Shown here piece by piece: positions 30,123 to 33,271 of a stretch of DNA of 44,375 bases. Made by a program: the position numbers and the translations under genes. Numbering within the stretch: the first letter of the stretch is position 1; each line of letters starts with the position of its first letter. The notes below the pieces were generated by a model. That model was given only the letters and a program-made list of their open reading frames with translations, had not been told where the DNA came from and ran no database searches. This DNA comes from Enterobacteria phage mEp237: the sequence record NC_019704.1. One strand, 5' to 3'.

Positions 30123-30374
30123 ATGATTGCATCAACTAAAAGTGTGTATGATGAAAAAAAACATCATTGGGGGTGGGATGTGGAAAAGTTCTACGTGGGT
30201 TACAACGATGTATGTCAGGCGGTAGGTAGAGCGACGCTGAATCTGATATCACATGGAGACGCGCCAACTACTGAGGCGATCATTTCAATACTTGAGTCGC
30301 TGGGGGATATTGAGCAGAACGATTTTTGGCGACAGGTGTTCAGGTTTGCAGCTGAGGAAGTGCGAAAAGGGTAG
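30123..30374 (+). CDS. Hypothetical protein, convergent with the three-gene operon
   Basis: 83-aa ORF ending 11 nt before the shared hairpin at 30385-30404; weak RBS. Confidence 0.4.
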   Translation: MIASTKSVYDEKKHHWGWDVEKFYVGYNDVCQAVGRATLNLISHGDAPTTEAIISILESLGDIEQNDFWRQVFRFAAEEVRKG

Positions 30375-30384
30375 GCAAAAGAAA

Positions 30385-30404
30385 CCCGGCGCGGTGGCCG
30401 GGTC
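30385..30404 (-). terminator. Terminator hairpin closing the minus-strand three-gene operon
   Basis: 7-bp stem ACCCGGC / GCCGGGT with 6-nt loop, 5 nt past the stop of the last gene; minus-strand downstream sequence is T-rich. Confidence 0.6.
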
Positions 30405-30408
30405 GATT

Positions 30409-30822
30409 CTACCCAAATGGTAGCTCAATATTCTTGATAGTTGTTGGCTTAAGTATTTGTTCACATTGTGTTTTAAAGAATATTTTTACGTTATATTCAA
30501 AGAACCATCGGTTTTCATCAAGTAATTCTGGTGTTAAATCGATACTGTCTGGATAAGTGAATACTAAACGTAAACCAAATTGCAGGTTAAACGTTTCATG
30601 GATTGCCCCATCACTGGTCGTGCTGAGACCTACAACCTTTGGGGAAGCAGTTATCTCAATTATACTTAGTGCTTCATCGGATTTTAATTTTTTACCGGCT
30701 TCGACAGTAATCTCACCGATCTCAGCTTCAAAATTGCCCCTATTAGTACCACTTTTCAAAGGGGTATGCTTGAAATGTATGTTGCTAGTGCTGACCTCAA
30801 TGAGCCTTATCTCTGATAACAT
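30409..30822 (-). CDS. Unknown protein, third gene of the AT-rich operon
   Basis: 137 aa; about 30% GC; overlaps the preceding gene by 16 nt; no family recognised. Confidence 0.65.
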   Translation of the reverse strand: MLSEIRLIEVSTSNIHFKHTPLKSGTNRGNFEAEIGEITVEAGKKLKSDEALSIIEITASPKVVGLSTTSDGAIHETFNLQFGLRLVFTYPDSIDLTPELLDENRWFFEYNVKIFFKTQCEQILKPTTIKNIELPFG

Positions 30823-31253
30823 AAAATACCCACATCATTGTTGTCGTTGCTAGAGCCAAACTTACTTCCTATCACAAAGCGCACAATTTTTGTTTCACTA
30901 GTATCTTTCAGTTCGGGTTCACTAGTCTCATATTGCCTTAATGGTGGAATGATGTGATGTGAGACATCAACCCCATTTCTGAAAACAGAGACCCTTGCTT
31001 CAGCACCCAGTGCGTATGATATGTCGGATAATGTTCTCAGGGTCATGTTTCTGGTTCCATCAAGCAGCTGCGAAACATGGGAAGGTGATTTACCAAGTTT
31101 CCTGGCAAGCTCACCTTTGGTGATGCCTGCATCTTGCATGGCTAGTAGGAGATCCTCCGTGGTGTTGAACACCAATCGTTCGGAAGCCATCTCCCTTTCA
31201 CTGACATAGGGAAGTTCGAAAACTTCGCCTGCAGAATTGTTGTCAACAGTCAT
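30807..31253 (-). CDS. XRE-family HTH protein with N- and C-terminal extensions, second gene of the operon
   Basis: 148 aa; HTH_3-like core (ITKGELARKLGKSPSHVSQLLDGTRNMTLRTLSDISYALG); GAGAGAGGA RBS; overlaps both neighbours. Confidence 0.75.
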   Translation of the reverse strand: MTVDNNSAGEVFELPYVSEREMASERLVFNTTEDLLLAMQDAGITKGELARKLGKSPSHVSQLLDGTRNMTLRTLSDISYALGAEARVSVFRNGVDVSHHIIPPLRQYETSEPELKDTSETKIVRFVIGSKFGSSNDNNDVGILCYQR

Positions 31254-31650
31254 CTAATCCTCTCTCGATTCGTTCCCAGTTGTTACGGACCTTCTGGGTA
31301 TCAGAATCACTTAGGTCATCAAAATCCTTGTAGATGTAATGACTTATGAAATAAGTCATGAATACTCTTTCTGACTCCCAGTAATAACCTCTGATGGGTA
31401 TCTTCTTTATAGCCCAAAAATTTTTGCTGGGTTTTCCATTGTAAGAAGGTAAAACCCCCTCCTTTCTAACACTTAGGTCGGGAGTCCTCTTACCAGAGGC
31501 TAATCGCTCTATTTGTAGTCTAAGATTGACTACCATAGTTTTTTGCTTTTTGGCTGGAGTCACGCTCCGGATGACATCAGATAGCGTTTTAAGAGCCCCA
31601 TTACAATGAGTTACTGTGAAGCAGTTACCTTTAAATGTATGTTGAACCAT
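31243..31650 (-). CDS. Unknown protein, first gene of the operon
   Basis: 135 aa; AT-rich; palindromic operator-like element upstream; no family recognised (RelE/HigB-like fold is only a guess). Confidence 0.65.
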   Translation of the reverse strand: MVQHTFKGNCFTVTHCNGALKTLSDVIRSVTPAKKQKTMVVNLRLQIERLASGKRTPDLSVRKEGVLPSYNGKPSKNFWAIKKIPIRGYYWESERVFMTYFISHYIYKDFDDLSDSDTQKVRNNWERIERGLDDC

Positions 31651-31662
31651 CTACTAATCCAT

Positions 31663-31682
31663 AGTTAACATATATATTAACT
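31663..31682. promoter_or_regulatory. Near-palindromic operator-like element upstream of the three-gene operon
   Basis: AGTTAACATATATATTAACT: 20-bp dyad with two mismatches, 13-32 bp upstream of the first start codon. Confidence 0.5.
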
Positions 31683-31929
31683 CACAAAATGCACGCGAGC
31701 CACCATCATCGTACACAGATAATCCAAAATCGTTGTTAGCAACTTAGCTACCCCACTATGGTAGCGGCTGCGATTGTTGACAGACGAAGCTCACCTTTAT
31801 TTCCAAGATTCATGTGCTTAGAATAAAAAAACATCTAGGACTTCAGGAAAAGCACATAGATGCGGTACATATTTTGTTGCTCTTCTTCTGGTTGTTAGCG
31901 ATAAAACTCACAAAACTTACTTTTCCGCT

Positions 31930-32121
31930 TCACAATAACACCATTACTGTAACCACTACGAATGCTATCAATAGCACTGCCATAACGATGACCGCAAAAG
32001 TTGTTGAGTCCTTAAAGTAAGTCTTTTCATGCCCATTCACAGGACCAATGAGCATGATCCAGATGAAAATGAAGGTAAAGCAAAGAACAGCGATGGAAAT
32101 TAAAAACAGGCCAGTTTTCAA
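31930..32121 (-). CDS. Small membrane protein (two predicted TM helices), TTG start
   Basis: 63 aa, strongly hydrophobic (LFLISIAVLCFTFIFIWIMLIGPV ... FAVIVMAVLLIAFVVVTVMVLL); GAGGGA RBS; sits directly downstream of the repressor genes. Confidence 0.5.
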   Translation of the reverse strand: MKTGLFLISIAVLCFTFIFIWIMLIGPVNGHEKTYFKDSTTFAVIVMAVLLIAFVVVTVMVLL

Positions 32122-32153
32122 TAATGTCCCTCGCCATTTTCATCAGATGCTAC

Positions 32154-32546
32154 TTACTCAGAATCACCCTTAATCCGCCGCCCCATATACTTGGCGTACA
32201 GTTCATCGAGTTCCTTCAGGCGCAGTGATACCGCCTTAAGAACTCCACTCTGATCCTCTTCGGGGAGTTGACGGAAAAAACGTAAAAGCTCTTGCTCATT
32301 ACTTTTTAATCCATCATTGGGCCCTATATCCTGCCCCAAAACCCAGGCTAAATTCACACCAAGCGCATCAGCTAGCTTAAGTGCGGAGTTTTTTCCAATA
32401 GTTCCCCTTACAAACCAGTTGTTAACCGACTGGGATGTTACGCCACAAATTCTGGCCAGATCTGCTTTTGAGAGATGTTTACTATTCGTGATCTCATTGA
32501 GTCGTCTGACCTGTGGGTTATCTGATTCGTGTGTATTTTTTCTCAT
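32154..32546 (-). CDS. DicA/RacR-like HTH repressor paralog (no peptidase domain)
   Basis: N-terminal XRE HTH (LSKADLARICGVTSQSVNNWF) and C-terminal LPEEDQ...LRLKELDELYAKYM segment shared with the adjacent paralog; start taken at internal ATG. Confidence 0.75.
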   Translation of the reverse strand: MRKNTHESDNPQVRRLNEITNSKHLSKADLARICGVTSQSVNNWFVRGTIGKNSALKLADALGVNLAWVLGQDIGPNDGLKSNEQELLRFFRQLPEEDQSGVLKAVSLRLKELDELYAKYMGRRIKGDSE

Positions 32547-32565
32547 GTACAAGAGTATCACTTAG

Positions 32566-32949
32566 CTAATCAGCATCGCCCCTGATTCTGCGATTCATGT
32601 ACTTGGCATATAGTTCATCGAGTTCCTTCAGACGCAGGGAGAAGATCCTTATCATATTCTGCTGTTCTTCTTCCGGTAACTGTCTGTAGAGCTCCAGAAT
32701 ACGTTGTTCATCAGGCTTAAGGCCATCCTTCTCTCCAACATCCTCACCAAGTAGCCAGGGGACGGATACCCCAGCAGCATCAGCAACCGCTAATGCAGAA
32801 CTTTTGCTGATTCTTCCTGTTTTGAACCAACTGGAAACAGCTTGCTTACTGACGCCAGCAACCCTGGCCATCTCTGTTTTAGAGAAACCTTTCCGGTTCA
32901 GTTCTGTAAGCCTGGAGATCAGCCCAGTAGTCATTGTGTTTTCGCTCAT
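32566..32949 (-). CDS. DicA/RacR-like phage repressor (CI analog without S24 peptidase domain)
   Basis: HTH (FSKTEMARVAGVSKQAVSSWF) plus C-terminal LPEEEQ...LRLKELDELYAKYM domain; divergent from the cro-like gene; start could be 32934, 32949 or 33033. Confidence 0.8.
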   Translation of the reverse strand: MSENTMTTGLISRLTELNRKGFSKTEMARVAGVSKQAVSSWFKTGRISKSSALAVADAAGVSVPWLLGEDVGEKDGLKPDEQRILELYRQLPEEEQQNMIRIFSLRLKELDELYAKYMNRRIRGDAD

Positions 32950-32958
32950 TTCACTAGT

Positions 32959-33024
32959 GTAAATGATTGCTTTACCAGTAGGTAGGCATTCATTGATTGA
33001 CTCATTGGTAAAATGATGCTTTAC
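32959..33024. promoter_or_regulatory. Divergent immunity promoter/operator region with two dyad-symmetric operator-like sites
   Basis: GTAAATGATTGCTTTAC (32959-32975) and GTAAAATGATGCTTTAC (33008-33024), each GTAAA-N-TTTAC, 49 bp apart; candidate -35 TTGACT at 32997-33002. Confidence 0.55.
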
Positions 33025-33046
33025 TTTTTCCATCTAAGGAGGTCCT

Positions 33047-33271
33047 ATGACTGGTATTGAGAAAGCTATTCAAAAGTTTGGCACAGGTGCGGCACTCGGA
33101 AGAGCGCTTGGATTTTCAAAAATGACAATTTCCAACTGGAAGAAAACTGGCATTCCGCCCGATCACATTCGCTCTGTTTTTGAGCTTACGGGAGTCACCC
33201 CGCATGAGTTGCGGCCTGACTTATATCCCAATCCAACCGATGCCTTACCAGTGCAAGAAACGAGGGCATAA
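33047..33271 (+). CDS. Cro-like / YdaS-family HTH regulator
   Basis: 74 aa; divergent from the repressor; YdaS/Cro-like pattern (GTGAALGRALGFSKMTISNWKKTG...ELRPDLYP); AGGAGG RBS. Confidence 0.8.
   Translation: MTGIEKAIQKFGTGAALGRALGFSKMTISNWKKTGIPPDHIRSVFELTGVTPHELRPDLYPNPTDALPVQETRA

Follow-up and report, generated by a model that had tools for sequence, protein, structure and literature searches.

Enterobacteria phage mEp237 (NC_019704.1) carries, directly behind the two tandem repressor genes of its immunity region, a 63-codon open reading frame (ORF) on the minus strand (31930-32121) whose product is very hydrophobic. The question raised by this locus is whether the ORF is a gene at all and, if so, where it came from and what it does for the lysogen. 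In the current analysis, which covers the whole stretch of 44,375 nucleotides (here called the window), comparison with homologues identifies the ORF as a genuine protein-coding gene for a membrane protein predicted to form a helical hairpin with two transmembrane (TM) helices. The gene derives from a host gene for a small membrane protein, captured by the phage and since diverged, and it represents the first branch of that family to be carried by a phage. With regard to function, we tentatively favor a role in superinfection exclusion.

Evidence for coding came from homologous DNA taken from Enterobacter prophages and chromosomes. The sense frame is open across all 63 codons in six lineages whose proteins are 54-90% identical, and in the same six-lineage alignment each non-sense frame is interrupted by stops in at least some lineages. 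Pairwise differences at sense codon positions 1, 2, and 3 number 252, 115, and 480, respectively, position 2 being the most conserved, and the ratio of nonsynonymous to synonymous substitution rates (dN/dS) against the Enterobacter phage copies is 0.15-0.16. The original prediction had described a 63-amino-acid (63-aa) hydrophobic ORF with a TTG start and a GAGGGA ribosome-binding site at these positions, and all of these details were correct. It had also allowed that an antisense ORF of 68 aa (31814-32020, plus strand) might prove to be the real gene. The apparent dN/dS of this second frame is equally low (0.11-0.17), which at first sight speaks for it, but this is because its wobble positions are shared with those of the sense frame. 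It follows that dN/dS cannot discriminate between the strands, and we therefore used codon-position counts and ORF integrity instead. By these measures the antisense ORF is effectively refuted. Of the four phage-type lineages compared, three have a stop in this frame within the span of the gene (the copy at locus L011 has none), and in the wider alignment all six lineages have at least one; the first 38 codons of the antisense ORF fall in the remnant of a repressor gene (see below), in DNA that is not conserved among lineages; and it has no family match. Moreover, sense position 1, which is antisense position 2, is more variable than sense position 2, whereas antisense coding predicts that position 1 should be the most conserved.

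The start of the gene deserves separate consideration, as gene callers began at an internal ATG (M23) in three clusters of homologues (P0006, P0007, and P0010), giving a 41-aa product. No sequence resembling a ribosome-binding site lies ahead of this ATG. The TTG, with a Shine-Dalgarno sequence 5 nt upstream, is kept in the phage copies and in the chromosomal copies L046, L054, and L056, and in the chromosomal copy L059 an ATG occupies the equivalent codon. Codons 2 to 22, the TM1 region, are open in all lineages and differ 140 times at position 3, 86 times at position 1, and 62 times at position 2; the changes in TM1 are mostly synonymous (dN/dS about 0.1). To judge from these comparisons, the N-terminal helix belongs to the 63-aa protein.

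The protein has a grand average of hydropathy (GRAVY) of 1.73. Hydropathy analysis places hydrophobic segments at approximately aa 4 to 25 and 41 to 63, with the polar loop PVNGHEKTYFKDSTT between them, and AlphaFold2 returned a closely similar picture, with a helix at residues 2 to 25, a loop at 26 to 38, and a second helix at 39 to 62 (pLDDT, 70). The protein presumably sits in the inner membrane.

Scans for known families were uninformative. The 63-aa protein gave no match above noise in Pfam, NCBIfam, PHROG, or PADLOC (E <= 0.1), and neither did its chromosomal homologues; the sole Pfam/NCBIfam trace at this threshold was a chance-level match of 12.5 bits to 7tm_7. No match to the gene was found in 50,697 phage records by megablast, blastn, or tblastn (the tblastn result probably having been lost to the low-complexity filter, and mEp237 itself apparently not being among these records), nor in 5,426 complete E. 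coli genomes, distant mode included, and a whole-word search of the literature on mEp237 returned prophage-typing mentions only and none of gene 37. Two profile searches, an hmmsearch over 1.84 billion representatives and a profile word search, found 26 clusters, all of them from the Enterobacteriaceae. Among these were P0008, at an E value of 9e-20 by hmmsearch, and P0016, at an E value of 1e-27 by word search, with 60% identity over 98% of the query. P0016 (64 aa) is the commonest cluster, with more than 200 index blocks, and in the Enterobacter cloacae complex its gene lies between fnr and uspE, in the order abgA-abgB-abgT-ogt-fnr-gene-uspE-pntBA. An example of this intergenic gene is "hypothetical protein B1H42_12540," and frameshifted metagenomic versions are present at the same site. 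In E. coli K-12, the gap between fnr and uspE is 151 nt and contains no homologue. Other members lie near ompW-yciCBA-tonB (P0015), next to a TonB-dependent receptor gene (P0020), or, in Salmonella, within an island that has an integrase and a tail-fiber assembly gene (P0022). The family is thus unannotated and confined to the Enterobacteriaceae, its other members being mostly single, chromosomal, and outside prophages.

All members have in common the motif W-I-x-x-x-G-P-x-x-G-x-x-K-T-Y-x-x-D-S-T-x-F-A, which spans the loop and the start of TM2, and the family alignment contains 22 invariant columns. The chromosomal copies are 68-81% identical to one another; the phage copies, which are 54-65% identical to the chromosomal ones, form the most diverged branch and have the loop changes K29N, E31H/Q, and Q37K. 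The relationship is nonetheless one of true full-length homology, extending to the length of the protein (63 to 64 aa), the two-TM hairpin, the loop motif, and the TTG (or ATG) start with its Shine-Dalgarno sequence 5 to 6 nt upstream. The chromosomal copies differ in that they stand alone, with an upstream region of their own of ca. 125 nt, in a conserved neighborhood of metabolic and stress genes, whereas the phage copy forms the final cistron of an immunity operon. When the phage copy is compared with L056, the chromosomal type nearest to it, similarity reaches ca. 15 nt upstream of the gene (ATGCGAGGGAGTGGATTG in one and ATGGCGAGGGACATTATTG in the other) and ca. 10 nt downstream of it, so that the captured piece would be a minimal cassette of about 220 nt.

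At two of the chromosomal loci of Enterobacter, L049 and L052, synteny with uspE is lost ca. 22 nt after the stop of the small gene (locus coordinate ca. 5217). The foreign DNA beyond the break holds an SRAP gene with umuDC at one locus and, at the other, cold-shock genes, ynfU, an invertase gene, and a tail-fiber gene (a prophage end). An integration hotspot therefore adjoins the host copy and may have provided a route for its capture by phages.

In the phage, the small gene is, as originally proposed, co-oriented with the two repressor genes and directly downstream of them. It follows the stop codon of the second after 32 nt, and the AT-richness noted in the original prediction is equally apparent (GC content of 0.39, compared with 0.51 over the whole window). 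The window itself represents a Rac-like lambdoid temperate phage, with recE/recT, a YdaE-like gene, the immunity region, ydaS (cro-like), ydaT, and O/P-type replication genes; the two repressor paralogues are 52% identical. No promoter-like site was found in the spacer ahead of the 63-aa gene, and no terminator-like site was found from repressor gene 1 to position 30404, so the gene is expected on the lysogenic repressor transcript and would be transcribed in the lysogen together with one or both repressors. That transcript may read on into the three-gene operon farther downstream, and the first terminator-like hairpin (Table 1) is likely to end any readthrough from the repressor genes. The 306 nt after the small gene fold no better than shuffled versions of the same RNA (z = -0.5), Rfam gave no match at E <= 1 in the region from 30300 to 33200, and no promoter-like site was seen on the opposite strand near the gene. 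Translation from the weak TTG would be at a low level, and the retention of this start throughout the family points to selection for a low dosage.

Table 1. Features of the mEp237 immunity region and of the cargo found behind the small gene at related loci (L numbers are those of the loci compared; all other positions refer to the window; asterisks are stop codons)
Feature	Position or locus	Strand	Remarks
Small membrane protein gene, 63 aa	31930-32121	minus	TTG start at 32121-32119; 100% identical to "hypothetical protein mEp237_037"
TM1, aa 4-25	32047-32112	minus	Part of 63-aa gene
Conserved loop, aa 26-40	32002-32046	minus	Part of 63-aa gene
TM2, aa 41-63	31933-32001	minus	Part of 63-aa gene
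Spacer from repressor 2 stop to 63-aa gene, 32 nt	32122-32153	minus	Contains Shine-Dalgarno GAGGGA at 32132-32127, five nt before TTG
Repressor gene 2, 130 aa	32154-32546	minus	Tandem paralogue of gene 1; ATG at 32546; start in ORF list GTG at 32561; TAA at 32156-32154
Repressor gene 1	32566-32949	minus	HTH_3 / Phage_CI_repr domain; conserved C-terminal LPEEEQQNM..LRLKELDELYAKYM; ORF open to 33033 (155 aa)
ydaS/cro-like gene	33047-33271	plus	Divergent from repressor 1
Repressor-paralogue pseudogene remnant, last ca. 40 codons	31790-31918	minus	KFCEFYR*QPEEEQQNMYRIYVLFLKS*.. compared with RILELYRQLPEEEQQNMIRIFSLRLKELDELY; tblastn E = 4e-10
Three-gene operon	30409-31650	minus	135 aa; 148 aa, Xre-type helix-turn-helix; 137 aa, phrog_19522
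First downstream terminator-like hairpin	30383-30404	minus	8 pairs, 6 of them G-C, then T-rich tail
Window-type three-gene operon downstream of small gene	L002-L009, L037, L039, L040, L044, L045
BstA (KilA-N + BstA_C domains) downstream of small gene	L010, 6400-7164		Enterobacter asburiae
KilA-N-like gene downstream of small gene	L038
Genes of 150 + 101 aa downstream of small gene	L011, L036
Genes of 102 aa + HicB-like + 137 aa downstream of small gene	L012
Genes of 93 + 173 aa downstream of small gene	L041
No gene between small gene and recE	L029

The original prediction also suggested that the small gene might share a cargo island with the three-gene operon, and here the comparison gave a different answer. 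Enterobacter prophages match the window (83.5%) only over 32225-31929, that is, from the last ca. 70 nt of the repressor gene to the stop of the small gene, where homology ends. At least four repressor alleles (128, 131, 130, and 155 aa) lie upstream of the small gene, and the spacer between the two measures 29 nt in L029 and 32 nt in every other phage-type locus. The three-gene operon, which in the window is separated from the small gene by 279 nt of noncoding DNA, is missing downstream of it in L010, L011, L012, L029, L036, L038, and L041. Since at least five other, unrelated cargos, or none at all, can follow, the small gene is a unit of its own, tied to the repressor 3' end.

The same slot has been filled in another way in E. 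coli. Strains AR_0118, TC24, and PCP06171 carry a repressor pair that is 97.8% identical in DNA to that of the window, and homology with the AR_0118-type prophage stops 13 nt past the repressor stop (about 32141), inside the spacer. The slot in AR_0118 (L001, 5857-5955; NZ_CP020048.1, 415400-415498) holds a 32-aa gene of the YoaK family (NF033821; 54.9 bits, with a cutoff of 32), which is followed by hicA-hicB and a 141-aa gene. Behind this repressor, then, a host small membrane protein has been recruited on a second, independent occasion. The two arrangements are alike in that a host-type small membrane gene lies immediately 3' of repressor 2, with a three-gene cargo operon after it; they differ in that the YoaK protein is unrelated in sequence, has a single TM helix, and is followed by no remnant of a repressor gene. 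The NCBIfam scan accordingly returned no match of the 63-aa protein to NF033821. A repressor remnant after the YoaK gene had been suspected by eye, but the similarity was not significant. More generally, the DNA that follows repressors of this family is a hotspot for defense cargo, with many unrelated fillings across 22 species. BstA, the gene behind the small gene in L010, is a known prophage abortive-infection defense. In the Rac prophage of E. coli K-12, no small membrane gene lies downstream of racR, the products of ydaG and ydaF being nonhydrophobic; moreover, racR is of a different repressor type from those of the window.

A clue to how the small gene reached this position is provided by a pseudogene fragment of a third repressor paralogue. 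In every phage-type locus, the stop codon of the small gene is directly followed by a copy of the last ca. 40 codons of a repressor. In the window this remnant starts 12 nt past the stop and has two in-frame stop codons; it is uninterrupted in L010 and L038 (E values of ca. 2e-16), carries stops in L012, L011, and L036, and is nearly erased in L029 and L041. The L036 remnant ends in ..KYMKGRIRSQGE, with a 150-aa gene after it; in L025 this 150-aa gene comes directly after an intact repressor, which ends in ..KGRIRSQGE*. We conclude from this pair of junctions that a unit consisting of the repressor 3' end, the spacer, and the small gene entered a resident repressor gene, in its middle, by recombination. 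The most economical history, and one that we strongly infer, is that the ca. 220-nt cassette, bringing its Shine-Dalgarno sequence, TTG, and ORF, replaced the 5' two-thirds of the distal tandem repressor paralogue, the part that encodes the helix-turn-helix (HTH), in a Rac-like phage. The small gene is thus flanked on either side by a copy of the repressor 3' end. Recombination in the upstream repeat would shift it between immunity types, and recombination in the downstream repeat would set it before whatever cargo trails a repressor. The constant linkage to the repressor at 29 to 32 nt, in the face of such varied cargos, would then be due to capture and to recombination in the flanking repeats and not to functional coupling.

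What the gene does for the lysogen is a more speculative matter. The interpretation that we favor, albeit at somewhat less than an even chance, is that it encodes an inner-membrane factor, expressed in the lysogen and acting by itself, whose most plausible role is superinfection exclusion at the step of DNA entry. By way of its conserved loop, the protein would hinder the entry of incoming phage DNA, and it would do so without a Rex-like sensor or effector partner and without the adjacent three-gene operon. We favor exclusion because the gene is presumably among the very few expressed with the repressor, because the slot otherwise holds defense cargo (BstA and HicAB), and because there is a precedent in HK97 gp15, an exclusion protein diverged from the host protein YebO. 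In addition, a host small membrane protein of the YoaK family has independently reached the same slot, and the conserved polar loop resembles an interaction surface that has been altered specifically in the phage clade. A more elaborate proposal, which we regard as doubtful, is that the protein mimics its host relative and engages the membrane partner of the latter via the loop, thereby closing the DNA-entry route of other phages, and that the gene has also spread as a repeat-bracketed cassette with portable homology arms.

Several known systems bear comparison with such a factor. Lambda Rex is a two-component system, made up of a soluble RexA and of RexB, a protein of about 144 aa with four TM helices, and rexA-rexB are cotranscribed with cI from PRM. 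The original prediction likened the position of the small gene to that of rexAB, and so far as position goes the analogy is a fair one: the gene is directly 3' of the repressor and in the same orientation, with no intervening promoter-like or terminator-like site, and its product is a membrane protein. It does not extend to composition, as there is a single 63-aa protein with two TM helices, no homology to RexB (Pfam, PHROG, and PADLOC at E <= 0.1), and no RexA-like partner; the neighboring genes vary between lineages and are absent in L029. The gp15 protein of HK97 has a single TM helix and is encoded by an independent moron in the tail operon; mEp237 comes from the same lambdoid coliphage collection as HK97. 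Located in the inner membrane and expressed from the prophage, gp15 stops genome entry by other phages while leaving outer-membrane receptors untouched, and it has a host relative in YebO (PMC3594210). The resemblance here is that of one small inner-membrane protein to another, each being a diverged copy of an enterobacterial family of chromosomal small membrane proteins. The 63-aa protein, however, has no sequence homology to YebO or gp15 (Pfam and NCBIfam) and, unlike gp15, has two TM helices and is encoded within the repressor operon without a promoter or terminator of its own. The small gene shares with classical morons its AT-richness relative to the flanks but, lacking a promoter and a terminator, is not a classical moron. 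T4 Imm and P22 SieA are small or medium-sized inner-membrane proteins, each of which, acting alone, excludes superinfecting phages by blocking injection of phage DNA (PMC11436027, PMC10883804). Neither is similar in sequence to the 63-aa protein; furthermore, Imm is the product of a lytic phage, and SieA is a larger protein encoded at a locus of its own. By sequence comparison, then, the 63-aa protein falls outside the Rex, gp15/YebO, YoaK, and Imm families.

A number of observations weigh against a role in exclusion. Pfam, NCBIfam, PHROG, and PADLOC scans revealed no similarity to any known exclusion protein. In a sample of one genome per species, the small gene is present in only 1 of the 22 prophages with this repressor family (that at L029), while in the other 21 the repressor is followed directly by diverse cargo; the gene is therefore dispensable. 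The topology check proposed in the original prediction was successful with respect to the two helices, on which hydropathy and AlphaFold2 agree, but not with respect to their orientation: the positive-inside rule is ambiguous, with one K/R at the N terminus and two K/R together with two to three acidic residues in the loop. The copy shared by L012 and L043 (metagenome Ga0308165_1000789) has the substitutions C14R and W21R in TM1 and K38G in the loop, with a dN/dS of up to 0.46, and may be decaying or may have shifted to a 41-aa product with a single TM helix. Finally, the chromosomal homologues argue for an ancestral function in host physiology, which the phage copy may retain.

This last point leads to the most serious alternative, namely, that the phage copy keeps the role of the chromosomal family (e.g., as a small-protein regulator of a membrane transporter, of a sensor, or of a stress response) and confers on the lysogen a fitness trait unrelated to defense. 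We consider this possible but on balance unlikely. It would account for the fact that most members are single chromosomal genes in conserved nonprophage contexts, for the retention of the loop motif in the phage copies, and for the recruitment of yet another host family, YoaK, to the slot in AR_0118. On the other hand, the phage clade is the most diverged of the family, and its three loop changes suggest shifted specificity; Enterobacter lysogens probably already have a chromosomal copy, so a redundant function would add little; and defense-type cargo is what otherwise fills the slot region. Less probable still, in our opinion, is a membrane-damaging toxin or abortive-infection effector resembling RexB, a holin, or a type I toxin, which would depolarize the cell if overproduced or if triggered by infection. 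The small size and hydrophobicity of the peptide would suit such an effector, as would its rexB-like position, and a conserved weak TTG is compatible with selection for low expression. Yet no partner, sensor, or antitoxin accompanies the gene consistently in the phage-type loci compared, no Rfam antisense or small RNA family and no structured RNA lie nearby, and PADLOC gave no match; the chromosomal homologues stand alone in conserved settings outside prophages, and the protein has two TM helices, compared with four in RexB and a single helix in typical type I toxins.

We give little credence to two further explanations. One is that the protein is an accessory of the immunity switch that tunes lysogen stability or repressor activity in the manner of Hex. 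Hex is cotranscribed with the 434 repressor from PRM and stabilizes lysogeny, and the paper describing it makes no mention of the membrane (PMC3564112). Hex thus provides a precedent for a lysogeny-stabilizing protein cotranscribed from PRM, and both the constant 29- to 32-nt linkage and the transcript presumably shared with the repressor fit this model; however, a single capture event with recombination in the flanking repeats explains the linkage, the great majority of related prophages (21 of 22) do without the gene, the chromosomal homologues lie far from any repressor, and Hex itself has not been described as a membrane protein. The other, which we judge to be just as improbable, is that the ORF is hitchhiking or decaying without a current function in the phage, or that only the 41-aa product starting at M23 is made. 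The sporadic distribution of the gene, the arginine substitutions in TM1 of L012, and the preference of some gene callers for M23 could be read in this way, but the low overall dN/dS, the still lower value in TM1, and the coding-type order of differences in the open TM1 region (position 3 > 1 > 2) indicate constraint on the full-length protein, and the Shine-Dalgarno sequence precedes the TTG and not the internal ATG. Exclusion at DNA entry therefore remains the interpretation that we prefer.

Some observations on the neighboring genes should also be recorded. For repressor gene 1, the ATG at 32949 (127 aa) is the likelier start because the 155-aa form would begin just 13 nt away from the ydaS-like gene (33047), which is divergent; E. 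coli AR_0118 has an orthologue annotated as 127 aa. A -10-like hexamer, TACACT, is located 6 nt ahead of this ATG and hints at a near-leaderless transcript, as for lambda cI. In the three-gene operon, the 137-aa third gene (phrog_19522) is distantly homologous to the gene that comes third, after hicA-hicB, in AR_0118 (28% identity, E = 4e-8; L001, 4566-5696) and is weakly similar to the third gene of L012 (E = 0.007; L012, 6597-7876). This suggests a recurring architecture, in which a toxin-like gene and a DNA-binding, antitoxin-like gene would be joined by a third component of ca. 140 aa. The notion that the third gene encodes the SecB-like chaperone of a tripartite toxin-antitoxin system found no support, as a PDB profile search came back empty and hhalign against E. 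coli SecB gave a probability of 0.2%. The 135-aa gene is often called from an internal Met (97 aa). An inverted repeat, GTTAA-N8-TTAAC, is found at 31664-31681, 13 nt before its ATG, and is possibly an operator for the 148-aa HTH protein of the operon. An 83-aa ORF on the plus strand (30123-30374) was considered as a FumD-like gene, as the equivalent place is so annotated in other prophages, but showed no similarity.

Few phage genes are expressed in every lysogen. Genes cotranscribed with the prophage repressor are among them, and the ones studied so far (rexAB, hex, and bstA) function in exclusion or in the stability of lysogeny. The gene described here belongs to a known kind of thing, the lysogen-expressed small membrane proteins, and its practical value will be modest unless a phenotype is found; its biology beyond the capture history and the repeat-bracketed cassette is conjecture. 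It does provide a first testable lead for a nameless and unannotated family of small proteins in Enterobacter and its relatives. It also provides a second case, after gp15 and YebO, in which a small membrane protein of the host has been recruited by a phage; the YoaK gene in the same slot may be a third. The locus shows, too, how the DNA behind a Rac-type repressor comes to be rebuilt, namely, through recombination in the 3' end of the repressor gene itself, which is why the slot is a hotspot for defense cargo such as BstA and HicAB. If the protein does engage a host membrane partner and the gene does travel on the repeats that bracket it, this would constitute a previously undescribed way to mobilize a lysogenic-conversion gene within an immunity operon.

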